This document shows, one piece after another, positions 19,988 to 52,851 of a stretch of 64,000 bases of DNA. A program made the translations under genes and the position numbers. The DNA is from Catajapyx aquilonaris (lineage: Eukaryota), in NCBI GenBank assembly GCA_000934665.2, contig JYFJ02000982.1, forward strand, positions 1-64,000, read 5' to 3'. Numbering within the stretch: position 1 is the stretch's first letter; the number at the start of each line of letters is the position of its first letter. The notes under the pieces are model-generated. The model was not told the origin of the DNA. It worked only from the letters and a program-made list of their open reading frames with translations, and did no database searches.

Positions 19988-20032
19988 ATTAAAAATACTG
20001 CGAATGAAATGATTTCCGAGGTTCATACAACA

Positions 20033-22604: not shown

Positions 22605-23091
22605 GACCTGTTGGTGGGAGACGTGCAGACTAGTACACAAGTAATTATTGCCAAACATGACTTACATGCTTACATTCAACATTGAACCAGAAGCGTAGAC
22701 AACAGGTAATGAGAGGCAGCCAGCTCAACCTACTCAGTGCGATGTCCGGCCGTTGAGTGGCGTTGTTTGGAAAGAAGCCCGCAGCGACCACAGGCGGAGG
22801 GAGGGCGAACTATATCCCTATAACAACCTGCCATAGAGATGTTTATACTTTGATGTTTATACTTAATCTCTATGCAACAACGATACGATAAGTGTCAAAG
22901 ACTAATATCGATTTATCGATAATTTTAATTGGATAGTTATTATTAATTACTTGCAAATTGTGCTAGTTATTAATAACATATGAAGCTGATTGTAAGCGAT
23001 GTTTTGCTTTACCGTAGATGATATTTTGTATATTATTTTTCACTGACTGTGAGTTTTATTATTTTACCTGTTCTACAGTGTGTCCCACAAG

Positions 23092-26446: not shown

Positions 26447-28627
26447 ATGGCGTTGAGGATGAAGGTAATTTGTGCAATACTGTGTATAGCAGCCAGTTAC
26501 TCCTGGACAACAGGCAGTGACAAGTTGATAATTCAATCAATTGAAAAAATACTCAGAGAAGTTGGAAGTGACTGCGATTTGGTGATGAATCACGACGTAG
26601 ATGGCCTTCTTCCAAAAGTGATCCTGGATTTTTTGGCCAACATATCAAGACCAGTTGTCATCACTCTCTCAGCATCACTCAGCAACTGGAAATGCACAAG
26701 TTATGTCCGTTCACATGTTAAAATTATTGAAGGAAGTGTCAGGCCTAATTGCGCCACGTACCTGGTGGCCACATGCTCTCAAAATTACGCTCAGATCATG
26801 TCGCAACTGTTGTACGAAGATAACGTGATCAGAAAGACCAAAGATCGGTTCGTGTTTTGGATCAGGGATAGTTCAGACTCCAGCTTCTTACTGGAACATC
26901 CAGCAAACCGGATCAAGTTTAAGATCGCTTTAACCACGCGTTTAAACCAAGTTCAGGCCAGTTCTGCCTGCTTCTTCTGCGATCGCGGAAAACCAGCAGT
27001 TCAGACCCTTCAGGACGGATTGTTTCAGGACATGGCTTCAGACCTGCACGGAATATTCTTGAACAGCGTATTCGAAGAAAGTATGAGCTACGAGCAATGC
27101 GGTCCTTTCTCCTACTTTTACGAAATCTGCTTTCTCGGTCAAGCTCTTAAATTCAGGTGGGAAGTGACCGCCATGAACTTTGCGGATGTCGTCAAAAATG
27201 TGTCAGCCACAGTCGACTTTGTGGACAAGTTTGACAGCGGAGAAATTGCATTTTCGCCTAGAATACCACATATTCCAATAGCATTCCTGGTAAGTTCATG
27301 CAAAGTGTTATAAGGTATAGTCAGGGAGCATATACTACTACATAAGAGGCGCAAACATTCGATTTCCGCGTCTCTCTGTTTGGGGCGTTGCCAAGGCTGG
27401 CGGCCATCTTGAAGTGTGGGGAACGCCAACGAGGTATAAATAGGGTACAGTCAAAAATAGGTGCCGCCATCTTTGATTCGCGCGTGTTCTGCCGTGTAGT
27501 TGCCATAGCCGCCACAACCATCAAAGATGGCGGACCCTATTTTTGCCTGTACCCTATTTATACCTCGTTGGAGTTCCCCACACTTCAAGATAGCCGCCAG
27601 CCTTGAGCCTTGGAAATATATGTAGTATATGTTCCCTGGTAGGTATAGTATGGTATTAAAATATATTGTGACATAACAGGTGTTTGACTACACTTCGGCG
27701 TACGACAACCAGCGAATGACGTTCCTGGTACGTCAACCTCGTGTCACCAACACGACGTTTGTCGCAATCACACCTTACCAGCCTATCCCCTGGTTCGTGT
27801 TCTTCGCCAGCATGTGTTTGTCCAGCCTCTTCATGTCCATTTTGTCAAGTGTGGACGGGACACATCGCTCTGTAACATCATGGCTCCAGTACCTAGCACG
27901 AATATCTATCGAGCAGTGTCCTCGTCCGCCAGAAACGTCGTCAACCCGGATATTCGTCTCAATCTGGTTTTTCTTCTGCATCATAGTCGGTACAGGCTAC
28001 AAGAGCAAGTTGTATAACATAATAGCATTTCCGGATAAAGAAAATGTGCCTCAAAATTTTCTTGAACTGTTCAACTCATCGTTCACAATCCAACTGAGCG
28101 AACTGGTTTACCACTTGGTTGTCTCATACAGTGATTCGGAATTCCTCCTAAATTACAAGGACGTGTTGGCGAAAACGACATCTGTTAAAAACGAGCAGGA
28201 ATGCATGAAAGGCATTATAGATATCGACACAGTCTGTATGAATTCTGAGTATGTGCTGGACACATACGCTCGAAACTTGGATCCGTACGGTACCGGTAAG
28301 ACTGTCATGTCCTCAGACTCATTCATGACCGTGCACAGGTCCATGGTGTTGCCGAAGGACGCGGTGTACACTGACAACTTTGACTTTTGGATCCAAGTTT
28401 GTGTCAGCATTGGGTTGAAATCCAGACATGACAGTCTGATGATGCATTTGCATGGTCTGGAAGCGGCTAAAGCGAGAAGAGACAACGGATTTCAAGAGAA
28501 GAATGGGCCGTGTCCATTCTCATTGGCTCGTCTAATAGGGTCATTCGCAATTATTTTGGCTGGATACGCCCTGGCATTTGTACAATTTTTGCGTGAAATT
28601 TGCAACATTATTACAATACATTGCTAA
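26447..28627 (+). CDS. Divergent ionotropic receptor (IR, iGluR-related chemoreceptor), ~596 aa
   Basis: Exons 26447-27289 and 27680-28627 (phase 0). Signal peptide; FDYTSAY..TFLVRQP; TM1 PYQPIPW..; SSTRIFVSIWFFFCIIVGTGYKSKL..FP; final TM PFSLARLIGSFAIILAGYALAFVQFLRE; AATAAA overlaps the stop. Confidence 0.88.
27322..27638. mobile_element. Fold-back MITE (family M1) in the IR intron
   Basis: Ends CAGGGAGCATATACTAC / GTAGTATATGTTCCCTG; ~85-bp internal inverted arms; direct repeat AGGTATAGT at 27313-27321 and 27641-27649; second copy at 59007. Confidence 0.85.
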
Positions 28628-31631: not shown

Positions 31632-32770
31632 ATGTCGATAGACTTTTACTATAATTCTCTAAGCTCTCCGTGTCGAGCTGTGATGCTGACTGCGGAAGCT
31701 GTAGGATTACATCTGAACAAGAAGTGCATCCGGATCCAGGACGGCGAGCATCTCAAGCCCGAGTTTATTCAGGTCAGTAAATGTTGCAGCAATTATAGTC
31801 CTCAAGAGACACCATCTATCAAGAATCACATTTTTCAGATCAATCCACAGCACACTATTCCGACCATAGTGGACAACGGATTCACTCTGTGGGAAAGGTG
31901 GGTTGTATCCAAACTGTAACGACTAAAAAATGACACAACTGATGGCATAAATGTACCGATGTTTCAGCCGTGCAATACTGGTGTACCTGGCCACAGAGTA
32001 CGGAAAGGACGATGCCCTGTACCCAAACGACGCCAAGAAGCGCGGATTGGTCCTGCAGAGACTGAACTTTGACCTCGGACTGTATCAGAGATTCGCGGAG
32101 GCTTACGTAAGTTGTTGTACAGTATCAGCTACACAATACGATAAAGGAAAATTTATGTGCCATTTTTCTGGCCATTACTTTTACAATGAAGTTGCCAACC
32201 AAGACGGCATGCTGCACTGACCTAGTAACTTGCAAATGAGTTTATTGCACTGCATAGCAAAGCTATGCCAGGATAAAAATAGAGCAACAACATCAGGCAA
32301 GTGCGTGCATCAACGCTAACAATTTCCTGATCTGACGTACTCAAGGACAATAGTCGTGTGCTATAAATACAGATGTTTGATAAACTTGGCCTCCTTTTGA
32401 AGACCTTATGTAGCAATGTGCTTACCCTTACAATTATTGCTATTGATTTTAGTACCCACCAATGTTCATGGGATACGACACATTCGAGCCTGAGAAACTG
32501 AAAAGACTTACTGAAAGCTTGGACATTCTGGACTTGTTTCTGTCCCAGAGTCAATGGGCGGCTGGGGATCACTTGACCCTTGCTGACCACAGTCTGGTGG
32601 CCACAGTCAGCACACTGGACTCGGTAGGAATTGACCTCTCCGGGTACCAGAACCTCACCAGATGGTACCTCCAGTGCCAGGAGGCCATGGCTGGTTACCA
32701 GGAGGCCAACCAGGACGGAGTGGACGTCTTCAGAAGAATGGCCAACAAGTTACTTGTCGGAAAGCACTGA
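31632..32770 (+). CDS. GST Delta-class, unit 3
   Basis: [17 protein letters not shown]..; four exons; ends NKLLVGKH*. Confidence 0.92.
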
Positions 32771-33476
32771 CGATAATGTACGGTATATCTGAAATAACAT
32801 AGTGTGCAGAAATTTGTGTGTTTGATGACAACTTACATAATTATGCATCGCCGACTGACTCAAATAATTCGGAGTTACTGTATTGAGTAAATCCGAGCAA
32901 ATATCATTTTTAATGCCAAGGTTGAGAAGCTTTATCTGTCATTCATCTCTTGTCCTTCGGCGCCCTACAACTCACAATTTATCAGTCTCATCTTGTAAAG
33001 ATATTGTCGATATTAACTCACGGTTTCTTTATAATATGTACTGTAGATTACAGCAACACCAGACAATCAAACACGGATGGCTCATGTTATCATTCGGTTA
33101 TCAAGCGAAGAAACAAAGTGCTTGATAATGATAATAAGTGAAGCTCTGCAAGCTTCTAGAAGGTGGCCTGCGACTCATGGGGTGGTTAATCATATTAACG
33201 GGCAGTTAATATATTGACCGAATTTATCCCTACTTCCGAAACATGTAAACTGACCGTAAATTGATAATTCCAGATTGTTTTTTTTTTCACTTACGCTATA
33301 TACAGTTAGCTTGCAACTTTGGTCACTTACAAAGTTACAAGTGAATCAATCGTTACACTATATCGCTGCATTCCTATATTCCCCTTGTCAAGATTGTGAA
33401 CTGGTGACATATTCTTTAACACAAATAAATGAGTCCTTATCATCCTTGACGATATATCTGAAGTACATCAGTTTGC

Positions 33477-33534
33477 TATAAAACGGTGCAAATCCCCCAG
33501 ACTCTTCCTCAGTCGAATTGAGACTCATCCACAG
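33477..33534 (+). promoter_or_regulatory. TATA/Inr and non-coding first exon of GST unit 4
   Basis: TATAAAA at 33477, TCAGT at 33509, donor CAG|GTAGC at ~33534, acceptor ctgacag ending 33628 just before ATG 33639. Confidence 0.55.
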
Positions 33535-33638
33535 GTAGCACCTTGCCTCTATATATACAAGTAAGTCCTTTGCCTAAATTAAAACCACTGGTTAGTGCTT
33601 AACCTCCCGTTATTTTTTTTCCTGACAGTCCAGCAACC

Positions 33639-34832
33639 ATGACCATCGACTTCTACTACACCGCCGGAAGCTCGCCATGCCGAAGCGTTATGCTGACGGC
33701 CAAGGCTGTTGGAGTCGAGCTCAACAAGAAGGTGACCAACCTCATGAACGGAGATAACATGAAGCCGGAATACCTCAAGGTAATTACTTAATTGCACTAA
33801 TTACAGAACATCCTGTAACCTCTATAGCTGGACAGCAATGGTCTCCAATTGTAATGGCCAAATTAGTCAGCATTAAAAAAATAGACTACTAAGCAACAGT
33901 TACTTCGGAATAGCTATACTTTAGGGAACATAAAATATTAGCTGATTATACTTTAGGTTGAAACTTTGATGCTCGACGCCAATTGTGGACCATTCCTTAT
34001 AGGAAATACTGTATAATTAATTGTCATCCTTGGCTAGATGATTTCGGACTAATTTTAGCAGTCACTACTATTGATAGCCACTAAAAATAACTACTGTTTA
34101 TCAGATTTAGACGAAAATGAAAAACACTGTGTAGTTGTAAATTCAATGCCTGAATTGTTGCATTTATTGTTTACCCAGATGAATCCCCAGCATTGCATCC
34201 CAACCATTGTTGACGACGGATTCTCCCTCTGGGAAAGGTACGCACACACAGCTGCAGTCATACTCTGCAGTTTGTTCTGAAACAATGTATTTTTCAGCCG
34301 TGCAATACAGGTGTATCTGGCCACCAAGTACGGCAAGGACGACACCCTGTACCCAAAGGACGCCAAGAAACGCGGCATGGTCGAGCAGCGCCTCAACTTC
34401 GACATGGGAACACTGTACCAGCGATTTGCTGAGACTTACGTGAGTCAATGTCTTGTATATTGAAAATGTCAAGTGAAGTCGTTGTATTAACAATTTTTTT
34501 TGCAATAATTGCAGTACCCACCCATGTTCATGGGAGGTGACAAGGTGGACAAGGAGAAGCTTCCCAAGCTGAAGGAAGCCTTCGAGCTTCTGGATGGTTT
34601 CCTGTCCAAGACCAAGTGGGCCGTTGGTGACAACATCACCGTGGCCGACCACACCTTGGTGGCCACCGTCAGCACCATCGAGGCTGTCGGGTACGACATA
34701 ACTCCCTTCAAGAATGTGACCAAGTGGTACAAGCAGTGCCAGGACAACATGCCCGGATACAAGGAGGCCAACCAGGAAGGAGCCGCAGCCTTCAAGGAAA
34801 TGGCCAAAAACCTGTTGGCCGGGAAAATGTAG
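33639..34832 (+). CDS. GST Delta-class, unit 4
   Basis: [19 protein letters not shown]..; four exons; ends NLLAGKM*. Confidence 0.93.
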
Positions 34833-35187
34833 AGAACCCTAACACACTTTAGCTCTAGCATGAGCCAGAGTCGCACTGAATAAACGTTTCAAGACTGTCA
34901 TTCGCTTGCATTTATTATTTTCCAGCATTCAACAGGGGGCCTTGGTGTGGGTTTGGGAAATTTGTACACAAATAAACACGCATTGCACCAATTTTCAGCA
35001 CTAATAAAATGTCAATCATCGATTTTTTACGTGGGCTAGGACCCCCTTAGCTGAACTATAGTGTAACTCTGTATGTTGACAATAAATCCATTGTTGATCC
35101 TTGGCGTTCCATGGCGACAGGTGCGTCAACACAGTCTGTGAACCATACAGATCATCCCAATCGGAGGAATCGTGAAGAACACTCAAA

Positions 35188-36036
35188 ATGCCAGTGGACT
35201 TTTACTTCGCACCACCCAGTGCCCCTTGTCGCGCGGTCATGCTGACCGCAAAGGCCGTCGGGGTCGAGCTTAACAAGAAGATGGTCAATCTCATGAATGG
35301 AGAGCACATGAAGCCCGAGTTCCTCCAGGTACGCCATACATCACTATTGCACCTAAACCTTAGACACAAGCATTTATCTAATGATCTTGTCACAACCCAG
35401 ATCAACCCTCAACACTGTATCCCAACCATTGTAGACGACAAATTCACTCTTTGGGAAAGGTGAGCTTGTTCGATTTACATGCTGTGGTCATTCCCTGTAT
35501 GCTCTTGACCATTTCAGCCGTGCAATCCAGGTGTATCTGGCCACCAAATACGGAGGTGACGACTCTTTGTACCCAAAAGAGGCCATGAAACGCGCCTTGG
35601 TCGAGCAGCGTCTCAACTTCGATTTGGGAACACTGTTCCAGCGCTTCATGGAAGCATACGTGAGTTAGCAATATATTACAACAATGATGATGTGATAGTT
35701 ACGCTGACCATTTCCGGACAGTACCCGGTGATGTTCATGGGAGTCGAGAAGGTGGACCCGCACAATATGTCCAAAATAAAGGAGGCCATGGAGCTCCTAG
35801 ACGGGTTTCTGTCGCTGTCCAAGTGGGCCGCAGGGGACAGCATAACCGTCGCTGACCACAGTCTGGTGGCCACCATCAGCCAGTTAGAGGCTACCGGGTA
35901 CGACCTGTCCCCATTCAAGAACGTGACCAAGTGGTACAAGCAGTGCCAGAACGACATGCCCGGATTCAAGGAGGCCATGCAAGGAGCCACCATGTTCAAA
36001 GGAATGTTTGAGAAGATGGTGACCGGGAAAGTGTAG
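35188..36036 (+). CDS. GST Delta-class, unit 5
   Basis: [17 protein letters not shown]..; four exons; ends EKMVTGKV*. Confidence 0.93.
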
Positions 36037-36268
36037 CCATTCTTCTGATAACAGTGACACCGAATTTGCAGTAAATAAACATCAAATTCTACCTGCTCTT
36101 GTTCATTCCTTTTTTTTAAAAAAAAATCTCTAGCATAGCCCTGAGGGAAAAAACATAATGACAATAAATCCATTGTTGTTCCATGGGCGTTCCATGGCGA
36201 CATGTGCGTCAACACAGCCTGTGAACAATAGGTCATCCAAATTGGAGGAATCGTAAAGAACAGTCAAA

Positions 36269-38502
36269 ATGCCCGTGGACTTTTACTTCGCACCTGCCAG
36301 TGCCCCTTGTCGGGCGGTCATGCTGACCGCAAAGGCCCTCGGGGTCGAGCTCAACAAGAAGATGGTCAACCTCACGGCCGGAGAGCACATGAAGCCCGAG
36401 TTCCTTAAGGTACATCACTATATTATGTCGGGTTTACAGCCCATTCGCCGAATCAATTAGGAAACAGTACCCGCGGCTTTCTGACCCTTTGTATCGTGGT
36501 TTTGTGTGGGTTTTAAGTGGGGGAAGTGACTAGGGACACCGGAATTAATTCCTCAAGCTAGATCAGAATGCAGACAGGATCATTGTCATGATGATTGCTG
36601 CAGTTCCCAAAGGGCTATTCCATCCTATATAATCACCTCAAAATCCGTCCCGAATTGAATCCACGAAGACCCGGTAAAAAAATGTATTTTGTTGCCAACC
36701 ACCAGAAATTTCAATTTCGGTAAGTTGGCGTCGTTGGAGTGATTCGGCCTGAGATATATAGCAATCAGTCACCTTCGGTCTGGTTCAGCTTCTGGAATTC
36801 ATACCGAGATTCCTAGTCACTTCTCCCACTTTAAACCCACAGAAAACCACGATGCAAAGGGTTGTCAGCAAGCCTCATGTACTCTTTCCTAATAATTGAT
36901 TCGGCGTCTGGCCTGTAAACCCGACTTCAGCCAATCTAAAGATCTTGTCACAATCCAGATGAACCCTCAACACTGCATCCCAACCATTGTAGACGACAAA
37001 TTCACTCTTTGGGAAAGGTGAGTTTGTTCGGTTTACATATGCTGTGGTCACTCCTTGTATTATCTTGACCATTCCAGTCGTGCAATACAGGTGTATCTGG
37101 CCACCAAATACGGAAGTGACGACACCTTGTACCCAAACGACGCCATGAAACGCGCCTTGGTCCAGCAGCGTCTCAACTTCGATTTGGGAACACTGTTCCA
37201 TAGCTTCAGAGCAGCATACGTGAGTTGGGAATTACAATAATGATGATGTGATAGTTACGCTGACTATTTCCGGACAGTTAGCAATTGCAACTATGATGAT
37301 GTGATTGTTACGCTGACCATTTCCGGACAGCACCCGATGATGTTCATGGGAATCGAGAAGGTGGACCCGCTGAAGCTGTCCAAAATAAAGGAGGTCATGT
37401 ACCTCCTGGACGGGTTTCTGTCCCAGTCCAAGTGGGCCGCAGGGGACAACATAACCGTCGCTGACCACAGTCTGGTGGCCAGCATCAGCCAGTTAGAGGC
37501 CACCGGGTACGACCTGTCCCCATTCAAGAACGTGACCCAGTGGTACAAGCAGTGCCTGAACGACATGCCAGGATTCAAGGAGGCCATGCAAGGAGCCACC
37601 ATATTCAAAAGACTGTTTGAGAAGATGGTGGCCAGGACACCCAAAATACTTAAAATGCCCGTGGACTTTTACTTCGCACCACCCAGTGCCCCTTGTCGCG
37701 CGGTCATGCTGACCGCAAAGGCCCTCGGTGTCGAGCTCAACAAGAAGATGGTCAACCTCATGGCCGGAGAGCACATGAAGCCCGAGTTCCTTAAGGTACG
37801 CCATTCGTCACTATTGCACCTAAACCTTAGACACAAGCATTTATCATTCTAATGATCCTGTCATAATCCAGATCAACCCTCAACACTGCATCCCAACCAT
37901 TGTAGACGACAAATTCACTCTTTGGGAAAGGTGAGCTTGTTCTGTTACATGCTGTGGTCACTCCTTGTATTATCTTGACCATTCCAGCCGTGCAATCCAG
38001 GTGTATCTGGCCACCAAATACGGAGGTAACGACACTTTGTATCCAAACGACGCCATGAAACGCGCCTTGGTCCAACAGCGTCTCAACTTCGATTTGGGAA
38101 CACTGTACCAGTGCTTCATGGAGGCATACGTGAGTTAGAAATTACAACAATGATGATGTGATAGTTGCGTTGACCATTTCCGGACAGTACCCGCCGATGT
38201 TCATGGGAGTCGAAAAGGTGGACCCTCAGAAGCTGTCCAAAATAACGGAGGCCATGGACCTCCTGGACGGGTTTCTGTCCCTGTCCAAGTGGGCCGCAGG
38301 GGACAACATAACCGTCGCTGACCACAGTCTGGTGGCCACCATCAGCCAGTTAATAGCCGCCGGGTACGACCTGTCCCCATTCAATAACGTGACCAAGTGG
38401 TTCAAGCAGTGCCATAACGACATGCCCGGATTCAAGGAGGTCATGCAAGGAGCCGCCATGTTCAAAGGAATGGCTGATAAGATGTTGGCCGGGAAATTCT
38501 AG
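36269..38502 (+). CDS. Tandem double-GST fusion gene (units 6+7), ~440 aa
   Basis: Exons 36269-36409, 36959-37017, 37078-37219, 37331-37795, 37872-37930, 37988-38129, 38188-38502 (1323 nt). The fourth exon reads ..[20 protein letters not shown].. with no stop; the second ATG at 37655 is in frame. Confidence 0.8.
36427..36925. mobile_element. ~500-bp MITE with long imperfect TIRs in intron 1 of GST unit 6
   Basis: GTCGGGTTTACAGCCCATTCGCCGAATCAATTAGGAAA.. / ..TTTCCTAATAATTGATTCGGCGTCTGGCCTGTAAACCCGAC; inverted similarity extends ~125 bp; absent from the homologous introns of units 5 and 7. Confidence 0.85.
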
Positions 38503-38790
38503 TAATTCTTCTGATAACAGTGACACCGAATTTGCAATTAATAAACATCAAATTATACCTCCTGTTGTGCATTCCTTTTTTAAAAAAAAAAGTCTCTAAG
38601 GAAAAAACAATGAAAAATAGAGAACGTTTCAATAAAAGCGGACCTGGTCTGGACCAGGTCCATTATTTTTGTTACAGATTCGACTGTTGCTATTTCCGAT
38701 ACGGTATTGTATTTCTTCCCAGAACCTGCCATGGAAATGTCTTTGGATCAACAATGCCTATCTTCAGAACATAGTTATTTAGGGAAAGAC

Positions 38791-41700
38791 ATGGCGAGGA
38801 TTTTGGTTGGAAGTCTCGCTCTCTTCCTTCTCTTGTGTTTGTTAGAAGTCCATGTTACATCAGGAAGTTATAGGAAATCGTACCTGAAGAAGTATCACAT
38901 CGTTTCCAGTCGCGTGAAGGTAAGAGTGGTCGAGTGATACTTGGCTACACCTGACCAGTGGGAACAAAAGGTTCAAACCTGTGTCTGTACCTGCCCTTTC
39001 CAGATTCCCAGGATAAGACGGGTGTCCTTAGAAGACAGTTCTGACTCCATATTCGATGATCACCCTGACTACTGCATTTATCTCCGGATAAAGAACATCC
39101 CTCCTGGACTCGACATTTGCCTCCGTATCCGTCAAAGAAGCGACATGAACTTGACCTTCATGTCTACCGACGGCAGTAATCTCGTCGAGATACCGGACAA
39201 CATCCGAGGAGCCATGGTGTACGGACATGCCAACCAGGACAGACTCAACTCATTTGTGTCCGGGTACATTCACAACGGCCAGTTCTTCGGGGAGATCACC
39301 TTTAGAGGCCGGATCTTCGCAGTGGAAGAGCTCTGGTCGCACGACGAGACCATAAGGAACAGCGGTGGTAGTCCTTTCCCGACGTTGTCCAACAGGAAGA
39401 GCGTACTGTATGAGCTCGTGGACTTCATGACTGACTCAGGACAGCTAACGCTTCGAAGACAGAAGCTCGGAGACGTCATGACTGACCCAGGACAGGTAAG
39501 GCTTCGAAGACAGAAGCGCAGTGTGTCCAAGAAGGCTGAACGGTACAGGCCTTACGGAAGGTCCTACGACTTGGAGGACCAGTCCCACCTATTCAAAACG
39601 AACAGGATCTTCCACCCTCTCAGGTAAGACTCGACATTTCCGAGTAACCTAGAGATGATTTTTTTTACAAGCCACCCGAGTGCGCACCCACATTCGCGCA
39701 GCTCTGTTGTCCAGACAACAACGTTGCCAGAATTACTCGTATCTGCCGATTCTTTTCAGGCAGTACGAGGTGGTGTGCAGACTGGCTATACTAGCGGACC
39801 ACTTCTTCTTCAAGAATATGGCTAACGAGGATAGCCTTCTGGCGTTTCTGAAGCTGGTGAGCTTCGCCGAGAGAGTGCGGTACATTTTCAGCCACATCAA
39901 CTACGACCCCGGAAACCCAAATCCTGGCACCAGATCGGACGAGATTCGCTACAGGATAAAAGACGTGAGTTGCTCATTATAGGTTCAGTACTTCAACCAT
40001 CAGGTTCCCTAAGCTGAAGCATATTGCGAAACCCTTTCCCACAGTTTGTCGTGTTCGAGAAAGAGGACGTGGAGGGATATCCCATTACCAGCAGCACCCT
40101 CCACCTAGACATAGCCGAACGATACGTGTCCACCATGAGCAAAGGCTTAAACCTACAGGAATTCTGCATAGGAATAGTGATTTCGGGACACAACTTCACT
40201 GGGGATCCAGGCAAGTACACATTACAAGTCTTGACTCACGTCTTATAAATCCGTCGCACCACGAACCATATGAGAAAAGGGAGGCCATCACCTTTGAAAT
40301 TTTATCTACAATTATGCCACTGGTTTATTGTGCCTTTATACCGATGGTGACTCGTTTGGTTCGGACTTGACCAATTGATGACTTTTTCTGAACTGTGCAG
40401 CGACCGTGAACTTCTGTTTCAGGCAAGGCTTTTGAACCCGATCCCGATCGAGAGCTCGGAGGTCTGTGCGAGTCAAGCATTTCGATCGACGGAGAAACAT
40501 GGAGCAGGAACATCCTGGCAGTGTCGGCCGCAGCTTCTGGAGGGACGAGTGCACTTCCCAGCAGGAAGGCCAGCACTCTCATCGCCTACTACATGGCGAG
40601 GGCCATGGGGGCCAAAGACGACGACTCATCCTGCGATCCTCCAGGTATATATGCCAAGTGCACATAACACATCTGCGGTATGTACATAATAATGTTGGCC
40701 CGCGGTTTCCTTTCCAGATTCGGAGAAAAACGGTTACTACTTGATGCACAGCCACGACCAGGACGGCTCAAAGAAGAACCACTGGCTGCTGTCACAGTGC
40801 AGCAAAATGCAGATCAAGGTCATCTTGGACAAGCAGGCAAACTGCTTCACAATCGGCGACACCTCATATTGCGGGAACGGTACTTGCTTGTATCGTCTAC
40901 AGACAGAACGGATGTAATGCTATGTTCTTAACAGGCATAATCGAGAATGGCGAGGAGTGCGACTGCGGTACGGAGCACGTTACCTTTGGCTGCGAGGCGC
41001 ACGACGGATGCTGCCACCTGCCCATGTCGAAGGACGCGTGCAAAGTCGTGTAAGTTGCGTGACGTCATGCAAATGCGACTATTTTCTTCCTGCAACATTT
41101 AGTTGGACCGTGTGTCGTTTTGGATATTGCTGTTGTGATGCATACCCGGCATTTTACAGCACCGCGAAGCCATGCGAGAACGATGCGTGGCCCTGCGTCA
41201 TGTGCAACAAGACGGGCTGGCCCAAGTGCCAGTCCCACGAGAGGCCCTGCGATAAAGGCGAGGTCCCATGCTTACCAAGGTCCATCTACTGTCTCAACCA
41301 GACGAACCAGCCGGAGCCCTGCTGGTGCCTGTCCGACGAGACTCCCTGCTGCAACGAGACCAAACTGACCATGTGCAAGTCGAGGCCCTGCCGGTTCAAC
41401 GAGGTCCCCTGCAAGTCCCGGAAGCCGGGGCTTCCGTGCAAGATGGACGAATACCCTTGCATCCCTTGTGGCAAGCCAAAGCAGCCTCCCTGCAACCAGA
41501 CGTTGTGCAACGATAACTGCAATAGCTCCACTGATTGCAGGCTGTGCAGACCAGAGGAAGAGCCGTGCCGGTTGTTGAGGGGGTGTGGTGAATATGAGAT
41601 GCCTTGCTCGTACAACTGCACAGGAGTGGAGAACAGCGTTGAGTGCAGGGAATGCGAGGTTGGGGAAGAACCGTGCTTCCCCAAGCGTAGGAATTGCGCA

Positions 41701-44254
41701 TTCTATGAGGTCCCCTGCATCGAGTGCATCGTTTTTGACGGCATCAGGGAATGCCCGTTTATATCGGAGGCGATGCGGTGCGAGGAGGGAAAACCACAAC
41801 AAAACCAAAAACACTGCTTTCGGCAGTGCGAGGAGGGTGAAGAACCCTGCCTAGAGATTCAAAACTGCTTCAAGTTGACGAACGATAGCAGGCCGGGCAC
41901 CAAGCTGTATGATAGCTGCGCGGAGTGCGGGACCCATGGGCGGCCAGCTTGCACCGAGTGCAAACAGCCGTGCAAAGCCGACCAGCGAAATTGCTTGGAG
42001 ACGGTCTCCTGTCCCTCCTTCGTCACACGCTTCCGTGATTTTGTACCCCTCTGGTGCTTGGAGGTCGAGCCCTGCATCGGTTCGAACAGGCCCTGCCACC
42101 CCTGCGGCACCGAGTATTTCCCGGCCTGCGATAAGGTCCGGCTGCCGTGCAAGTTCTTCCAGCCCTCGTGCAATCTGTCGATCAAGTGCGTGCCAGGACA
42201 GGCGCCCTGCTGTCCACACCAAGGTAGGTAGGATAATTAACTTGCCACACACCCACGTCACATTAGACCTCGTGCTTGCAAAATTTCTTTCTGCAGCTAA
42301 GGATGAGCACTGCCTGCAGCAGAATTACAGGAGATGCAACAGAAGCGAGGCTACCTGCTTGTATGAGACGGAGTGCACAGTCGGACAGGAGCCTTGCAGA
42401 GAGTGCGGCGGTCCCTATCAGATGTCCTGCGAATACGGCCGTTGCAAGAGCGAATGCTTGTGCGGATCCCGATCGCCTTACAAAAGTTGCCGCGAGTACG
42501 AAAACGTCCAAGCATGCCTGACAGTGTGCGAGATGCACACCGAGTTGTGTAACGCCACGTGCCGTGAGCGAGACCCCTTCATGGCCGAGATATGTCAGGA
42601 GGACTGCCAAGACAACATGGACCTGTGCAACTACACGTGCCAACACCAGCTAGATCTCTGCGACAAGGTGTGCAAAGACTGCCTCGAGAAGTGCGAGTTC
42701 TGCAAAAATAATTTCTGCGACGCCGAAACACTTCCGTGCATCAGGGCCAATTGCACGAAAGGACAGGTGCCGTGCACCCCTTGCGGAGGACCCGAGGAGT
42801 GCCGCAAGGTGATGAACCCGTGCAGAGGCGAGGGTTCGTGCGTCGACAAGGCCCGGCCATGCGATGAGGGAGACGTCCCATGCAGGCTGGATTCGTGCGG
42901 ACCTGCCGCCAACACCTGCAGGCAGTGCGAGACAAATGAGACTCCGTGCTTCTTCCCAACCCGTACCTGCACGCAGGACGAGATTCAGTGCGTCCCTCGG
43001 CACTTGCCTCTCACCTGCGACGACCGCAAGTGCGATGACGACGAGACTCCCTGCAAGGCTCCGGTTCCTTGCGAGTACGGCGAGATGCCCTGCCAGCCCT
43101 GCGTCGACGACAATTGCACCGATCTCGAGCGTCCCTGCAAGTTGGGCCAGCTTCCGTGCGTCAAAGGGCGTCCCTGTTTGGCCAAGGAGTTGCCGTGCAC
43201 CCCGTGCGGAGAGTATGGCCAGCCCAAGTGCTACGACGTGACGAAACCATGCGGTCTCTTCGAGGTGCCTTGCAGGCTTCCAAAGGTGTGCGGGGTGGAC
43301 GAAACACCGTGCGAGCCGCCCAACTGCACCGATCTGCCTTGCCTCAGATGGCGGTGGTGCGAGCTGTGGGAAAGGCAGTGCGTGCAGTGCGGCCGGGAAG
43401 GACAGCCCCCGTGCGACCTGTTGTCCTGCAAGGACACGTGCAAGACGGACAGTTGCAGGCAGACGTGTGAGATGTGCCACACCTGCGACGCGGACGAGGT
43501 ACCTTGCCGCCCGAGGTTGCCTTGTGACTCCAGCGAGTGCAGGCGTCCGGACCCTGATCCTGCCTGCAAGTTTTGCGAGAGGATAGTGTGGAGGTGCCGT
43601 AGGGGGCAGAAGCCGTGCTCGGAGGACCCAGACTGCATAGAGGATGGCAATCCGGCGTGCAAAGGAGCCGAGCCGTGCAATCAGGCAAGCAAACCCTGCG
43701 CTGTTCCCAGGGCGTGCAAAGAAGGCGAGACATCCTGCGTGCTGTGTGGCATCTCAGGTCGGCCCCCGTGCACCAACTGCAGCGAGAGGATCTGCGACAT
43801 AGGCGAGATGCCGTGCAGCAGGCCGCAGATGTGCACGTACGACAAGCCCTGCGTCATGTGCGAGAAGCCAGGCTACGAGAACGTGCCGTGCTCCAGCGTC
43901 GTGCCGCCCAACCGCCCGTGCATGGACAGCGAGCTGCCGTGCGTGGAGCAGATGATATGCGACCACTTCGAAGAGAGGCCATGCGTCCCATGTGGCTGGA
44001 TAGGGACGCCCGAGTGCGAATCGATACAGGTTCCGTATCGGCCGTGCGGTATGCTCGAGATTCCTTGCCGAGCCAGGTGCACTCCGAGCGAGCTGGCTAA
44101 CCAGACGATTCTGCCTTGGAACTACGTGGAGATGATGAGGCCCAAGAGGAGGACCCAGTACGAGAAAGCGGCGGCTCATCGCGCGGAGGGGCTGCGGATT
44201 GGATTGGTTTTGATTGGGATGTTTGTCGCGTTTCGTCGACTGCTTGGGCAATGA
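38791..44254 (+). CDS. ADAM17/ADAM10-like pseudo-metalloprotease with long Cys-rich repeat extension (~1,546 aa)
   Basis: Nine phase-consistent exons: 38791-38919, 39004-39623, 39760-39964, 40045-40210, 40423-40644, 40718-40879, 40935-41049, 41160-42223, 42297-44254. Signal peptide, prodomain ending RQKR, CRLAILADHFFF, Met-turn GYYLM, SQCSK, CGNGIIENGEECDCG, hydrophobic C-terminus. Confidence 0.82.
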
Positions 44255-44537
44255 TTGGAGACAGATGGTTCAGTTGATTTGGAGGATTCTCAGTGAAGTA
44301 TAGGTTATGTTGAGACTGAGCAATAAAGACAGCGGTATTACGATCTTGTGTGTTTGAAAATACTATTTATCCGCTCAAATGTAGCCTACAGTGCTGGACG
44401 TTAATGGTGTCGTACTGGTGGCGCTGACGGCAAAAGAGCTCATTCATCACTTAGGTTCGCTCTTTTGTCGCCAGAGACTTGGGCGCCACCAGTATGAGAG
44501 TATGGCCCCCAGCCCCCCCAGCACTGTACTCCACATA

Positions 44538-44873
44538 ATCGGGTTAGTGCACCGCCCTAATTGGGCATCTGGCACGGTACCTTTATTTGCTTAAGCTGTA
44601 CAAGCTTTTACAAGTGGTCCTTTTCCGTAACGCCCGGGTACCGCGAGCGAAGGGGGAATGAATAGGAGGGGATGTGCAAAGTGCAAGTGCAATGTCGTTG
44701 CTTGGTCATTTTGTGAACTCCCCCGGGTGGCTTAGTCTGTCGGAAATTGCCACCCGAAATGAAGCCAGAGATGGCCCAACTCTGCACGGATAAAGGTGGG
44801 AACCCCGGGTGGGGATTGAACCCGGGACCTTAATATCTGTGGGCGCGCGCGTTACCGCGGCGCCACTTCATCT
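44538..44873 (-). mobile_element. tRNA-derived SINE (family B)
   Basis: Reverse strand GTGGCGCCGCGGTAA..GGTTCAATCCC (A/B boxes); perfect 16-bp direct repeat CACTGTACTCCACATA at 44522-44537 and 44874-44889. Confidence 0.85.
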
Positions 44874-45596
44874 CACTGTACTCCACATATCTTAGCTTAT
44901 TATTACTTTATTTCATTTTATTTATTTTAATATGCAAATTCTTGTGGTGTTTTGGAAAGCTACACTCAGTAGTTGAAATAGAAACACTTACACTAATTAT
45001 TAATTGTTTAGTATGATGTTGCATCTGATTACCATGCTAAGATTTTATCCTTGACCTAGGCAACCAAAATCACATGCATTGCCAACCTAATATTAGCAAA
45101 AATCACACCATATGCACTATTGGCGAGTTTAAAAAAATAAATTAAAATCTAAGTAGCCTACCCATTCTGAATATTTTCGGACGTTTTACGGCACTCAACT
45201 TGCGAAACAGTCATCTTCGCAATTTCCGAAAATTAGCCCATTGACTCAACGCTGTACGGCTGCCCCGTTGCAAAAGGCAAATTAATTGCAAAATGCCCAC
45301 ACAAGCACAGCATTAATTTGAGTGGATTAATCTGTGTCTAAAATATGTATTCTATACAATCATGCACTGCGCTAAACGGCTAAAGTACTATTCCGCCAAT
45401 CTCTGGACGTTATTTACTTGACCTTCACATGTTGTGTAATCAGCCGCACACCATGTGCTGGGCACAGTCTCTTCAAAGCGTTCAAGGCTTGTTAACCGGC
45501 AGTCTTCGTAGCGAACAGATCTGAAACAGATCGTGAGTTACAGTGTTACACGTGTGATAATTCACGTCGTTTCTCAAGTGAACGTAGTCACTGGCC

Positions 45597-46724
45597 ATGC
45601 CTGTCGACTTTTACTACCTGCGATGCAGTCCGTGCTGCAGGACTGTGGTTTTGACGGCAAAGGCTCTTGGTGTTGAATTCAACATGAAGGAACTCGATTA
45701 TCGCAAAGGAGAGCACCGCACACCCGAATTCACCAAGGTCAGTGTCTTTGTAGTGATGGGCAGTCGTGCTCCATTTTCACAGCATATATTTCAAATATTT
45801 TTTTTTACGCAGATAAACCCACAGCGCATCCTTCCAACCATCGTGGATGACGGTTTTGCAGTCTGGGAAAGGTGTGTTCTTCATCATTACCATAATATTA
45901 ACCATTGTTGCTATAACCATCTCGTTTTCAGCCGTGCAATATCCGTGTACCTGGCCACCAAGTACGGCAAGGATGACACTCTGTACCCGAACGACTCCAA
46001 GAAGCGAGCCATTGTGGAACACCGGCTTAATTTTGACCTAGGCACCCTGTACCGACGCCTTTCCGACGCTTATGTATGTACAGACATATGACAGGGTGTC
46101 CCATAACAATTCCAACAAATCTATAATTAGTCTACTAGTGTAGCGGACTCGTTGCCAAATATCGGCAACACTGCCTGGCCCACCCCCAACATGGATGTAA
46201 TACGATATGCCACTACCAGTTGTCGCAAAGGCTCTCCCTCTGTACACTCCTGCCACTCTCAGGGAGAAAGTAGTACTACATGCACGTTGGTGATGAATCA
46301 CAGCGTGGACAAAGTCCACCAGGGCGCTATACTACTTTGTCCTCTAATTATTGTTGATCGATTGTAATCGACAGGTGTGAGTGTCAGTTATATTTATCCA
46401 CAGTTTGTGCCTATCTTCTTGGGAGGCACCAGGGTCGAACCAGAGAGGGTCAAGCAGTTGGAGGAAGCTTTGGAGCTGCTGGACGGATTTCTCTCCAAGA
46501 CCAAGTGGGTCGCAGGTGATGTCGTGACCGTGGCTGACCACACCATGGTGACCACGATCGGAACCATGGACTGCATAGGGATTGACCTGATCCGCCACAA
46601 GAATGTGACCAGGTGGTACAAGCAGTGCCAGGTTGAAATGCCTGGTTACAAGGAGGCCAGCGACCTGTTCGGAATCGAGCAGTACAGCGAAATAGCAAGG
46701 AAAGGACTGGAAGGAAAGATGTGA
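45597..46724 (+). CDS. GST Delta-class, unit 8 (divergent)
   Basis: MPVDFYYLRCSPCCRTVVL..INPQRILPT..; four exons; ends GLEGKM*. Confidence 0.9.
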
Positions 46725-47117
46725 AGGTGTCAAGTTCTGTATGTTCTGGACCAAAATAAATTTTGCCAATATAATAAATACATTTCTACCAGTCATTATG
46801 AGATACCTGATTACAATCATGAAAGTACCGACAGTTCTAGCCAATTTTGACAAAAATGTGGCAGATCTGCATTTCAGGTCTTCATATTGTTGTCAAACTT
46901 GCACTACCATTATTTTGATGTGCAAGGGTCATTGGCACTACGTAAGCCTGATTCTCTGACACATTCCTTCATTACGTGGAGTGACCACAGTTTCCTTCGT
47001 GTCTTCGGGTCGGTTGGTGTCACAATACTTTTATAACATTTATCATGGTGTGTGGTTTTACAACTCTGTACAGTTCGTTTTGATTATCAGGTTTGAATTG
47101 TCCTAGAGCACATCAAA

Positions 47118-48529
47118 ATGGATCAACTGTCAATTTGGGTTATTATTGTCTTGGCTGGTGCCGCCGTCTTAGCTGAAGGTATGGTTCACTATTTTGCTGA
47201 TTAACTCCTTATCCATTTAATTATAGCATTTTGCATTATTTTAAAACTCTTCAAGTGACCCCCCTAGTCAGGTTATTTTTCAAGTTAATATACAAAGTTC
47301 TGCACTAGTTCAGAGATAAACAGCGTGCATCCTTACAATAAAGCATGTTTATTATTATTTTTTAAATTACCCAGGTTCGTCAAATTCAAGCGAGCAGTGC
47401 CTGACAGAACAGGGTGACGTGAAAGAAGGTTGTGCGGCCATCTTGGTTCCATGGAAATCGACCTTCATGTTTGCTTGCCCAGGTTAGTGTTAAATCCGAT
47501 TTTATGTCTGGCTCCATGAGGTAACTTACTCAGGTAGTTAACCCAAACTTGATTCGAATAGTTCTGCAGTTCAATTCTTAATTTTTATTATAATTTTTCC
47601 CCCTCATTACGCGTATGTAGGCGAGGATGACAATTACACAATGGAAGATTGCTCCCATAAAACATACCCGATGTGCAATTTACCAGAATGCAGTGATGAT
47701 GCATTTAAGAAAGATTTGGACAACGTGGAGAGAGGCTCATTTGCTGTGCATGCCATCCACGAATGTCGATCCAGCCTCTGCGTTTCTCATCCTGGTAAAT
47801 ACCGCTCTTATAATCAGTCAATTATCTGATTATTTTTTCTCAGATTATTGCAGGAACGTCGAGTGTCGTCCCCCACCATACAATCGTACCGAATGCAAGG
47901 AATTAAATCAACACAAGTGCTGCTCCGACTATGTGTGTGGGAATTACAGACGACGTCATGAGAGTGAGTTTTGCATTAATATGTGGGTCATATGTAACAT
48001 TTAGATCGGTATACTGCTCATGTAAGAAATTAATTATTTTTGACGATTTTTGTTCGCTACAGCAACACGAGTAAAGAGAAGCAGCAATCTCGCTCCATTT
48101 CACACAAGTTGTTGAAGTAAACAATCCTATCTTCTATTGTTGGACCTTTCAGATGATCCAACATGTGATGGAAGATTGTATTGTTCGCCGGAGGCATTAA
48201 TTTACATGGATTCGATAAATTCGAAGCTGAATCCAGATGGATCACCTTGCGTGGTCTTTCTAGACGAGTACAACTGCGATGCTCCAGTTCACATGTGCAA
48301 AAGTACAAAATGCGATTATTTATTCCCCCTTTTTTAACGCTGATGATATTTTATGACAATTTCAGGCGATGAAAAACCCGGCCGTTGCCCCACAATAAAT
48401 GAAATTGATCAAGACATCGGCTTACTTCGGTCCTGTGTGGGAGACTACACCTGTCCCTCTGAGCAGAAGTGTTGCAAGTATTACATTTCTGCCATGTCGG
48501 GGTCATGCTTGGACCCTGTCAGCGACTAG
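47118..48529 (+). CDS. Secreted Cys-rich protein with VWC-like and 6-Cys WAP-like domains, copy 1 (~258 aa)
   Basis: Exons 47118-47178, 47375-47482, 47621-47794, 47844-47963, 48153-48302, 48366-48529, all introns phase 1. Signal peptide MDQLSIWVIIVLAGAAVLA; last exon KPGRCP..CVGDYTCPSEQKCC..SCLDP. Confidence 0.8.
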
Positions 48530-49340
48530 CATTGTTATTACAAGTGCTGTTGTGGAAAATAACAAAGATATCCGTCGCCTATTTCTATTGTGCACAGGCC
48601 TTATGTTTTCATCATTTGTAATTGTGTATTAAGCACTCGGAATTGAAGCTTCACAATCAAAAGATGACAGTTTTAATCAGCCCTCTCCCAAAGTTACAGT
48701 CGTTGTGCGCAAGTGACAAACGAGGAAAATAAAACTAAAAATCAACATTTTACGGTATGAAAATTAAAAGTAACTACGTTAAATATGAAATACCAAATAA
48801 ATAAATGAAATAAATTATTCAGAAAATAAATGGCATAATTATATGATAAAAATAAGATGACACGTATAAAAATAGAGTATTTCTTCTTATAAAAGGCTCT
48901 TTGTTTGTTTGTCCAGGTTTGATGGTTATCACATGGCAGCCCGTTATCATATATTGCTAGGAACTCACAGGTAAACCGGACATTATACATTTTGGGGTTC
49001 AAACCCAGTTCAAACCGAACAATTTCATCCATGCATTATTCAAAGTACGAGCATATTTTTGTGGGTAAATAGCGAGTTGTGTCCATTTTTCGGGGGTTAC
49101 TCTGAGTATACCCAGTGTCGGTGTAGGTTATTCACCGCACTATACTTTGCGTCATTCCGGAATTATTACTCACAACAACAATCATTTCTCTGCAAGTCAT
49201 TCGCATTGGTTCTGCGGAATGACACGCATACGGAAATACTCGTGTATTTAACCTGCAACGGTGTACTCCATGCATAATTTACTAGCTAGAGTTCATAAAT
49301 TTTATCAGTTGTAGCCGGTTGTAGCCCACTGCGTCACCAG

Positions 49341-51526
49341 ATGGAGAAGCTACCACTGCTGATTCTTATGGCAACGCTGATCATCTCAGCTCATGGTGAG
49401 ATGTCTTTACATATTATTATTAAACAGGATTGCGCACTACACAAGTCCATGAGCTGCAAGAGGGGAGGAAAGTGACAATATATATTTGAAGGGTTTATTC
49501 CGGTAATCAGTTTAAAAAGGTGAAACAGTCACGACAGGCGACATTTTTAAAAACATATGGTTTCTTCTTTCCAAACTGGTTGCTAGGAAAAACATTTCAT
49601 TCCTTCCCCGTTGTGCTTCCATTAATTGTTGAACCTCTGGACTTGGACCAATATTTAAATACCTATTATTATTTAAATGAGACCGTATTTGCATCCCTCG
49701 ATGCCAAGAGAGAGATAAAAACTGCAACATGAAATACATTACGATATGTAGTTGTAAAAAGGGTGAAATATAGTTCAATTATACAAGCCACGTTCGCAAG
49801 AAAATCTTATTACTATTCGTGTGAGCGCTTGCTGCAATGTTTCATCTTACATTTTTCACACCTTTTTGCGTAGTTCATTTTTGATATGTTTTTGCTCTAA
49901 AACTTCTCTTTGCCGCTTAGAATCCTGTGATATACACTTGGGATTGTTAAATCATGACACACATGTTCAGTCAGGTTGAAAAATCATATTTGTTTAATAT
50001 TTTCTTGCTGCTGCAGGGTCCTTTAATTCAAGCCCAGCGATTTGCCTGACAGAAACTGGAGATCTGACAATGGGCTGTGTTGCTATGCAAGTCCCCTGGA
50101 AATCGACCTTTATGTATCTGTGTCCAGGTTAGTATATCGACAAACTACAGGACCTATACACCGTAAAATAGAGGCAAAATAATTTGAATTTTGACTCCAG
50201 GAAAGGAAGACAATAATTACGAGAAGAAGGATTGCACATGCATTGTTGAGACGCCTGATGCGAAAGGACCCTACAGTTGCAAAAGGGAAGAATGTGCATA
50301 CAATGTCATTCATTCAGATCTGTCTAATGTCGTGGAAACTGGGATATTAGCAGTCCACTCGCTCGACAAACGGTGGAGGACAAATCTTTGCCTTTCGGAC
50401 CCTGGTATGTGCACTGTAAGTTTACCAATAAAAGTGACAGGAATTTTCATGCGTTATTCTCATGCAGATTACTGCAAGCACGTCCCATGCAGGCCACCAC
50501 CTTACAATATGACCGAGTGCAAGGAGATTAGAGGAAAGCCGTGCTGCTCCGATTACGTGTGTGGACGTCAGGAACACAGTAATGAGAGTGAGCTAGTCAT
50601 TATATCGGACCGAAGCAGGTTGGCATAGTGGATAAGGCGTCCGACTGCTAATCGGGAGGTCCTGGGTTCGAATCCCGGGGCCGGCAACCTTGACCGTGGT
50701 TTTCTGTGGTTTTCCACGGTCTTTCTAGGATAATTCCGGGGTCGCTTCCGTATAATAGGCCACAGCCGCTTCCTTCCTTCCCTATCCTTGGAGGTTGAAT
50801 GGCAAATGCTGGGCCAACCTCCTTAAATATCAATTAAAAGTCAGTCATTATATTGGAAGGAACCCTGTGGATGTGTGAACCTTCAGACATATACCCTGTA
50901 TAATACGTACTCTAACTGTATGTGCTGTCAAAAAAGTTTCGCCAAAGCTTATTCTGGCATTACGACATTCGACCTAAGTGAAGTTGACAGAAAAACGACA
51001 ACAAATGTATTATTATCTGATGCATAGCGCCGAATTTCATTTGGACATAGACATGAGCAGTATATGTCTACTTTAATATCTATCACCTACAGTATAATGC
51101 AAACGTGGCACATGTTGTTTGTTTGACCAATTTCCAGGTGTCTCGCACTGTGTCCACACAAGGTGTTCCGGAGTGGCTTTAATGGCTCTTTACTCGGAAT
51201 ATCCAAGACGGAATCCAGATGGATCTCCCTGCTCAGCCTTCATAGATGTTTACAACTGTCATGATAGTCTAGTTATCACATGCAAAGGTGATGTCTATGC
51301 TACATGCATTTAGTGTCTTGGACAGTACTCTGCTAATATGTTGCAATATCACATTTCAGAGAAAGAAAAATCTGGACGTTGTCCGACTGCCAATGAGATG
51401 GACGTGAACATCGATACTGGCTTTGCTCGTCTCTGTGTGGGAGACTACACCTGCCCGGATGACCAAAAATGTTGCACCTTTGACCCCTCAGGCGAAGGGC
51501 TATGCATGGAGCCTGTCACAGACTGA
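49341..51526 (+). CDS. Secreted Cys-rich VWC-like/WAP-like protein, copy 2
   Basis: Six exons homologous to copy 1: MEKLPLLILMATLIISAH | CLTETGD..VPWKSTFMYLCP | .. | CRPPPYNMTEC..CCSDYVC | NPDGSPC | KSGRCP..CVGDYTCPDDQKCC..CMEPVTD*. Confidence 0.8.
50608..50842 (+). mobile_element. tRNA-derived SINE (family A) in intron 4 of Cys-rich copy 2
   Basis: A box TGGCATAGTGG, ctGCTaa, B box GGTTCGAATCC; flanking repeat AGTCATTATAT(C/T)GGA at 50595-50609 and 50843-50857. Confidence 0.88.
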
Positions 51527-52851
51527 AATTATTTTAACGTCTGGTGGAATTGAAGCGATATTACTTTGTTGCAGTAATGTTCGGGCGAAAGTTGCCCGAC
51601 GTATGAAGGAAGACAAGGGAACACAGAAAGTACATAAAAAGCGCCTGTAACTGCAGTTTTAGTAAAATAAACAATATTGTTTCATAGACACGCTTGTCTG
51701 AATTTTATTTAGATAATTGCGGATTTAGTACACTTATAGTCCACAGTTACCCTTACCACCCGAATTTAGATCAGGTGACCAGGTCTGTGAAAGAAAACGG
51801 AATCCAGAGGAATCTTGTCCGTATAACGGATTTTTTATTTTCTTCTATTTGTGAAGCCAAATGCACCTGTACGATGTATTTTTGTCCCACAATATCGACA
51901 TCAACGTAGTGGGTTTTAAATGTTTTCCTGTTCAGCATTACCATGTTTTTGTATTAAATTTTCTAATGGTAAGCTTTTAAGGGAAGATACAGTCGGCACA
52001 GACAGGGATAGTAATATTTCTATATTAACAGTTCAGAGTACCTTCACGGAGATATCGGTTATAACAAATTTAAAAAAAAAATATGCCACAATAAGAGTTA
52101 ATGACCTGAAGACACGCATAAATTTGCATTGGTAGATATCCGTTCTCAGACGAACATTATAGCGGAAGTGCACATTAAATACGTACATTTTCTTGTTTTG
52201 ATAAAGTAAAATGAAGTATATTATGAGGCAAATATGATGGGAACTAAAACATCGTAAGCGTGAAAATAATGGGGATGAGTAAAATAAGCGACGTAAATAA
52301 AAATTAGAATTAGAATTGCAGTGCGTACAAGCATCGGTTGGAGTTAACATGAATGATACAATCGTTTTATCTTGCGTTTTATAATGTTGTTAAATAGATT
52401 GGTCTATTATAGAGGGCTTTGACTTTTAAACAGTCAAATTATAATCATCAGCATGTACGTGCTCATCTTGCCGGAGTTTCTTTGACCACCTTGTTTTGAT
52501 AGTTTTGATTATAGTTACATAATTCCGGAATATACTCACAATAACAAGCCATTCTTCGGAAGTCATTCGCATTAGATCATACTGAATTATTATATGACTA
52601 GCATGCTACAATAGTACAACCTAGGGGAGGCGCGGACAATACATACTCAACGCCACAGTGTATTTGAAAGGTCATTCTCTGAGTAATAATTACAGCTTGT
52701 TTTGAAACGCGAATATTGTTTGTTTCTTACGATACAGTATGTTCCGGACTCGTCATATTCTAAGCAGCGTCATTGCATGTCACACCACTGATTTCAATAA
52801 TTACGCGTTAATGTGCCCATGTTGCTAGTGAGTAGAGTTCTAATGTCCAGC

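Follow-up and report, generated by a model that had tools for sequence, protein, structure and literature searches.

ADAM10 and ADAM17 form a separate, highly conserved animal clade (PMC4550289). Non-catalytic ADAMs are also documented (PMC4550289, PMC3055250, PMC1867822), and ADAM11, ADAM22 and ADAM23, the group II testis ADAMs and Xenopus ADAM15 are described as having an intact domain without the zinc motif (PMC4550289, PMC3055250); those named, as PMC4550289 places them, lie outside the ADAM10/17 clade. Catalytically dead ADAM22 binds LGI1 via its metalloprotease-like domain and is described as keeping disintegrin, Cys-rich, EGF-like, transmembrane and cytoplasmic parts (PMC5906670). Here we describe an ADAM-like gene at 38791-44254 on the plus strand of a 64,000-nucleotide (nt) stretch of Catajapyx aquilonaris DNA (contig JYFJ02000982.1, positions 1 to 64,000; the window), which by its alignments and trees is a descendant of the ADAM10/17 clade, not of other reprolysins, and in which the zinc-binding motif has been erased.

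Compared with ADAM10/Kuzbanian/Kuzbanian-like (PDB entries 6bdz, 6be6 and 8esv; metagenome open reading frames (ORFs) L011, L058, L051, L041, L076, L039 and L033, with PF21299), the predicted protein retains a signal, a prodomain and a furin site, a metalloprotease domain that is collinear and has six cysteines and the Met-turn, and a disintegrin start of CDCG type, whereas it lacks the zinc ligands and Glu, its disintegrin domain is shortened, and a repeat tail stands in place of the Cys-rich domain, transmembrane helix and cytoplasmic tail. Likeness to ADAM17/TACE (PDB entries 2i47, 1bkc and 8snl; genomic fragment L069) lies in the match of the sixth exon (E 5.2e-4), a weak match of the third and the G-A-x-x-D of the motif; the losses are the same as against ADAM10, and a Pfam scan found no membrane-proximal domain in the tail. 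As modelled, the gene is not an active ADAM10/17 sheddase, the zinc motif, the complete disintegrin domain and the membrane parts all being absent. It probably works like the non-catalytic ADAMs, by analogy, although it would represent a loss separate from theirs and, unlike ADAM22, has a new C-terminal two-thirds. A title and abstract search, with subscription journals mostly outside it and supplements unopened, found no dead ADAM10/17-clade gene of such architecture.

Erasure of the zinc-binding motif

Positions 40587-40622 translate as YYMARAMGAKDD, amino acids (aa) 429-440 of the gene model, and an ADAM10-type profile placed HExGHNFGxxHD on exactly these residues at the top posterior and within one collinear match; a 16-row alignment gave the identical register. 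The lost positions are H>Y429, E>Y430, H>R433 and H>D439, while G436, D440, C444, P446, G453, M457, S473, C475 and S476 are retained. The sequence-only reading had reported all three His ligands and the catalytic Glu as gone and G-A-x-x-D, the next Cys, the Met-turn and S.CS as kept, and translation, profile and alignment bear out the first part, the corresponding retained residues in the alignment the second. A metzincin without its zinc ligands and Glu holds no catalytic zinc and does not hydrolyse peptides. We regard the ADAM-like protein as very probably non-catalytic.

The profile derives from metagenome contigs scanned for an intact zinc motif, which yielded 121 loci; 15 of these scored 31-69 bits against the model head (next best 8.7), and the eight full-length proteins among these 15, seven of them carrying the Pfam ADAM10 Cys-rich domain PF21299, were used to build it. 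The match covered aa 112-654 of the model at 141.6 bits and took in exons 2-7 in their proper sequence; the head alone scored 139.6, and 200 shuffled heads reached no more than 3.1, the part of the match past about aa 545 resting on cysteines and being unreliable.

The predicted model has nine exons (38791-44254), a coding sequence (CDS) of 4641 nt, 1546 aa and no internal stops, and comprises the following features:

38791..38919, plus strand: exon 1, with the ATG, a signal peptide (about aa 1-24; Kyte-Doolittle 19-aa windows reaching 2.46), the prodomain start and a GT donor
39004..39623, plus strand: exon 2, ADAM10-type prodomain with furin motifs at its end (8.5 bits with the ADAM10-type profile; the highest of 500 shuffles was 1.7)
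39413..39517, plus strand: recent 51-bp in-frame tandem duplication, 88% identical, just upstream of the furin site
39499-39522, plus strand: furin motifs R-x-K/R-R at aa 209 and 212 (motif scan)
39760..39964, plus strand: exon 3, where the metalloprotease-like domain begins, with Cys256 (ADAM17 the sole family in 18 PDB rows, E 0.25-0.55; 12.4 bits)
40045..40210, plus strand: exon 4, a further part of the metalloprotease-like domain with Cys359; the GC-AG intron comes next (not significant alone at -2.0 bits; aligned collinearly when the whole protein is used)
40423..40644, plus strand: exon 5, the cleft strands and the active-site helix carrying the erased motif, with Cys389 and Cys444 (profile, alignment and six-frame scan)
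40587..40622, plus strand: erased zinc motif (aa 429-440; translation and profile alignment)
40718..40879, plus strand: exon 6, Met-turn (Met457, 40744-40746), Cys475, Cys490 and the first disintegrin-region Cys (36.8 bits; PDB matches)
40935..41049, plus strand: exon 7, first part of a CDCG-type disintegrin domain, the remainder absent (Pfam Disintegrin 1-25 of 75, E 0.051)
41160..42223, plus strand: exon 8, part 1 of the Cys/Pro/Glu-rich repeat tail (repeat units; no Pfam family, Atlas blank)
42297..44254, plus strand: exon 9, part 2 of the repeat tail, a CxxxC block, furin motif, hydrophobic end and stop
44138..44152, plus strand: furin-type motif RPKRR (aa 1509-1513), 33 residues from the C-terminus
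44198..44233, plus strand: 12-residue hydrophobic stretch, with six more residues ahead of the stop (hydropathy over 19 aa peaks at 1.63)
44322..44327, plus strand: AATAAA poly(A) signal, 68 nt past the stop, the only AATAAA in 38640-45000

The eight introns are 55-212 nt long, seven of them GT-AG and one GC-AG (intron 4, 40211-40422). Among 11 nearby GT donors tried for intron 4 a single one was in frame and ran into a stop, so that the intron requires the GC donor. The context of that donor is strong, and read-through of exon 4 would terminate after 12 codons. What had been called an intact 4.6-kb ORF stands in so far as the frame is open from ATG to stop; it is, however, a spliced 4641-nt CDS over nine exons as predicted, and no contiguous 4.6-kb ORF is present in the DNA, the longest stop-to-stop frames at the locus being 437 and 791 aa. 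A Pfam scan of all nine exons returned the sub-threshold disintegrin match only, with the prodomain unmatched.

Exon 6 anchors the register from the other side of the motif. In a PDB search it matched ADAM10 (E 1.7e-4) and ADAM17 (E 5.2e-4), with ADAM10/17 making up 21 of the 22 rows, and its alignment with residues 429-480 of ADAM17 chain 8snl_A puts Met457 of the model on Met435. His405 of ADAM17 lies 30 residues before Met435 (PMC9715963), compared with 28 residues from Tyr429 to Met457 in the model, so that the Met-turn is near its expected spacing. Exon 5 alone is weak against the full ADAM10-type profile (3.4 bits); against a profile of the motif region it was the top of 2693 six-frame pieces of the window (12.9 bits, E 0.012), and an Atlas search linked it to metzincin-clan clusters at 0.85, which is a lead only. 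PDB sequence searches with exons 2, 4, 5 and 7 (E<=10 for exon 5) gave no ADAM row.

An alternative exon carrying an intact HExxH, which would have overturned the erasure, was looked for in the window and is absent: the six frames hold six HExxH matches, none in the gene, and the scan of the 2693 six-frame pieces turned up no other ADAM-like one. A frame shifted by one base (40580-40606, plus strand) reads H-R-L-L-H-G-E-G-H across the erased motif. This HxxxHxxG look-alike was rejected, as it has no Glu, its frame is closed upstream by a stop at 40433, and it does not join exon 6 in frame; it arises because codons ending in C precede Ile and Met codons.

In the alignment, 67 columns are conserved in at least seven of the eight references, and the 30 that are kept include all six cysteines, eight of 11 glycines, both prolines and the Met, as against none of the four zinc and catalytic positions (Fisher p 0.005 for Cys versus catalytic retention, a comparison picked afterwards). 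The metalloprotease-like domain has exactly these six cysteines. Changes also affect the strand preceding the GGxC motif (L>P373, L>K375, W>F377), which we take to be the substrate-binding strand, and His458, His460 and His469 lie near the former cleft in sequence. A structure model of exon 5 (predicted local distance difference test, pLDDT, 53.6) showed a helix at aa 420-434 that stops short of the motif Gly; fold searches with it yielded nothing (best E 7.8, one row at Z 2.1), the model being too poor for interpretation.

Descent of the head

The sequence-only reading had placed the gene in the ADAM10/17 sheddase branch and asked for a phylogeny; trees, profile and the PDB matches of exons 6 and 3 agree on that placement. 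A careful tree built from 28 rows joined the model to the ADAM10/17-type rows with a support of 91/88 (unstarred), and a quick tree of 23 rows, obtained by removing four long rows and one duplicate, did so with 97 (starred); the set holds a single, partial ADAM17, the genomic fragment L069, and no identified animal group-B ADAMs. The end branch of the model is very long (in the careful tree 3.76 changes per column, where the median branch has 0.49; in the quick tree 4.59), and identity with ADAM10-type rows in the motif region is 26-32%. The trees do not separate ADAM10 from ADAM17 as the nearer relative: approximately unbiased (AU) tests rejected neither a sister relation with L069 (p-AU 0.56) nor a position beyond every ADAM10/17 row (p-AU 0.45), and G-A-x-x-D is therefore not a pointer to ADAM17 specifically.

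Searches for relatives gave little. A word-index protein search with exons 5, 6 and 7 found none, which is weak evidence given the short queries, and a metagenome scan with exon 5 produced 593 pattern matches, none of them confirmed. A phmmer search of exon 2 against 1.84 billion representatives returned three hits, rejected as scores summed over the repeats of unrelated proteins.

Two further metagenome loci, L050 (172-2688) and L096, fall on the ADAM10/17 side with an intact zinc motif and without the post-motif Cys and its partner Cys past the Met-turn; L050 also lacks the Pfam ADAM10 Cys-rich domain.

Selection on the reading frame

Simulated neutral substitution (2000 runs, no indels) first damaged the CDS or one of its splice sites after a median of 0.003 changes per site, the latest case being at 0.037. 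Lesions are thus expected far below the divergence observed, which implies that nearly all of the change, including loss of the motif, arose under selection for an open frame. The 51-bp recent duplication preserves the reading frame, and GC content at third codon positions is 0.73 in the CDS, similar to the 0.78 of a neighbouring glutathione transferase (GST) exon, compared with 0.44 for intron GC. The earlier description of the gene as maintained is upheld by the lesion simulation, the in-frame duplication and the retained cysteines, and selection has very likely maintained it.

These results bear directly on the view that the gene is a recently non-functional duplicate, silent or free of selection and still unbroken, which we consider improbable. 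Its very long branch and the lack of a relative in protein or metagenome collections would fit such a history; against this, the 1546 codons and 16 splice sites remain unbroken, although neutral decay would disable the gene once divergence reached about 0.3%, six cysteines are kept, the recent duplication is in frame, and the catalytic loss would necessarily predate the silencing.

The repeat tail and the C-terminal end

The sequence-only reading was silent on the tail, the partial disintegrin domain and the hydrophobic end. The tail (aa 541-1490, about 950 aa) contains 155 Cys and 23 CxxC pairs, as well as 17 of the 19 N-glycosylation sequons of the protein. The pattern C-xxx-[EQ]-x-P-C occurs 26 times in it compared with 1.2 times in Cys-fixed shuffles, and a second, longer unit (about 40 aa, built round the core CxxC-G-xx-G-x-P-x-C) is present in about 12 copies. 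In a leave-one-out analysis, with units chosen by motif and two pairs overlapping, 12 of 12 units beat their shuffles (11 with 0/300, one with 1/300). Similarity among the units at the DNA level is slight, which indicates that the amplification is old. Pfam (exons 8-9), Atlas (exon 8) and PDB searches gave no match for the tail, and the tail-unit profile returned four PDB rows, the best at E 0.77 and the only zinc-finger row at E 1.3.

Within the tail, positions 42515-42718 encode a block of about 68 aa with repeated CxxxC and CxxC pairs and few prolines, which may be an inserted helical disulfide module.

The disintegrin domain is represented by its beginning. The Pfam Disintegrin match of exon 7 covers positions 1-25 of 75 (E 0.051, under the curated cut-off), and the later conserved Cys columns are gaps. 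The short tail unit fits a disintegrin motif of four of the eight references (only 4 of 36 C-x6-C windows match), and the first tail unit aligns at the site of that motif without the Glu; the tail profile did not recognise ADAM10, its best score against ADAM10 ectodomains being 7.7 bits with bias correction off. Given the missing Glu and the unrecognised ADAM10, an origin of the tail from a disintegrin fragment is a weak idea.

The protein ends in RPKRR, small residues at aa 1519-1521, a seven-residue spacer, 12 hydrophobic residues and a basic end; a transmembrane helix and cytoplasmic tail are absent, with 12 hydrophobic residues followed by six more and the stop. By eye, this end resembles a glycosylphosphatidylinositol (GPI) signal or a short anchor. 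A furin motif 20-60 aa from the end occurred in 2.3% of 5000 shuffles, the range having been chosen after the motif was seen.

Function and alternative explanations

The joint reading that best accounts for the locus, and which we judge rather probable, is that of a maintained pseudoprotease with an extracellular binding or structural role. The signal peptide would direct the protein into the secretory route, where the prodomain would chaperone folding and be removed by furin. The zinc-free head would then act as a protein-binding module, like the dead domain of ADAM22 for LGI1, and the 155-Cys tail would form a chain of small disulfide-bonded, N-glycosylated modules serving as a stalk or a cross-linkable scaffold. 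Somewhat more tentatively, a GPI-type or short hydrophobic anchor might keep the protein at the surface, and furin acting at RPKRR might free it into an apical matrix such as cuticle, egg envelope or gland secretion. For the last step the mechanistic analogy is with the zona pellucida (ZP) domain matrix proteins, in which a furin consensus site lies C-terminal to the ectodomain and cleavage at it is described as preceding polymerisation (PMC4970718), whereas the present gene has neither a ZP domain nor homology to these proteins; a furin-released matrix component is a possible, less likely version of the protein's role. A more elaborate version, an undescribed lineage-specific family of dead ADAM10/17 proteins with a binding head and a tail grown from an amplified ADAM10 disintegrin piece, anchored, furin-released and built into matrix, we consider unlikely.

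Several points weigh against a maintained extracellular pseudoprotease. Function, expression and splicing are predictions from sequence, and the nine-exon splicing itself is one of them; the connection of head to tail depends on the predicted intron 7. The metzincin fold of the head likewise relies on sequence, the predicted models being low-confidence, and the fold of the tail fares no better (tail-unit model with pLDDT 51.2 and a predicted template modelling score, pTM, of 0.27). The hydrophobic end is short, with GPI assigned by eye, and no orthologue of the gene was found in the protein and metagenome collections searched. Only 30 of the 67 conserved columns are kept, and at this background rate the probability that four given non-Cys columns all disappear is about 0.075 ((33/63)^4), so that the motif looks released from constraint rather than singled out.

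First among the alternatives is a regulator of active ADAM10/17, its prodomain inhibiting the active paralogue in trans or its head drawing off substrates, TIMP or trafficking partners as a decoy. Prodomain and furin site are indeed retained, and ADAM prodomains are described as binding and inhibiting the metalloprotease domain (PMC4550289). The prodomain is, however, highly divergent at 8.5 bits, the strand preceding GGxC is changed (L>P373, L>K375, W>F377), the ADAM10 Cys-rich domain of all seven reference ADAM10s was not found, a transmembrane helix with cytoplasmic tail is missing, and a decoy leaves 950 aa of repeats unexplained; we hold this role to be quite unlikely, if a little less so than the recent silencing discussed above.

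Lower still we place the proposal that the tail is the working part, binding metal or buffering thiol redox state, with the head merely routing export. Its 155 Cys and 23 CxxC pairs, and GST genes on either side, might suggest this, but the secretory route is oxidising and turns cysteines into disulfides, the fixed Pro/Glu spacing suits folded modules, the zinc-finger row reached only E 1.3, and adjacency to GST genes carries no functional information. Marginally less probable again is a wrong gene model, with head (exons 1-7) and tail (exons 8-9) belonging to separate genes or transcripts: splicing is predicted and profiles show no likeness between the tail and ADAM10 ectodomains (7.7 bits at most), yet intron 7 is a 110-nt GT-AG intron in frame, the tail is not preceded by any signal-like hydrophobic segment, and the sequence separating head from tail holds no AATAAA. 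A residual protease, with a metal site rebuilt from Asp439 and His458/His460 or an unseen catalytic exon, is the least probable, since, although His458, His460 and His469 lie near the former cleft and ADAMDEC1 is described as tolerating Asp for one His (PMC3055250), both helix His and the Glu are also gone, none of six HExxH matches lies in the gene and the scan of 2693 pieces yielded no other ADAM-like one.

If the reading as a maintained pseudoprotease is true, the sheddase scaffold lends itself to reuse in a non-catalytic form, and the gene offers a natural test of what a non-cutting ADAM10/17 head binds. It would also add a new disulfide-rich repeat for characterisation, while leaving knowledge of ADAM10 and ADAM17 themselves unchanged. 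The amplified-fragment version, if true, would make it a signalling protease turned structural material.

Neighbouring genes

The window has a compact arthropod-type look, with short introns and with F-box/leucine-rich repeat (LRR), ligand-gated-channel-like and glutathione transferase genes. On the minus strand, 7571-21429 holds about four tandem F-box/LRR copies (F-box-like E 3.4e-13), and basic low-complexity ORFs in or near this array (about 9200-9660, 15130-15650 and 22170-22660) had no Pfam match where tested. Two long frames at 26384-28627 (plus strand) have the look of a single divergent ionotropic-receptor-like gene (Lig_chan E 5.2e-5, under the cut-off). Downstream of the ADAM-like gene, 47621-55584 (plus strand) contains three similar groups of small Cys-containing exons without a Pfam match, which we take to resemble single-domain VWC proteins. 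GST genes lie at about 32200-38500, 45600-46900 and 58500-62400 (GST_C E 1.6e-7 for one exon). The ADAM-like gene, on the plus strand, is flanked by one on each side, the upstream one ending less than 300 nt before its ATG.

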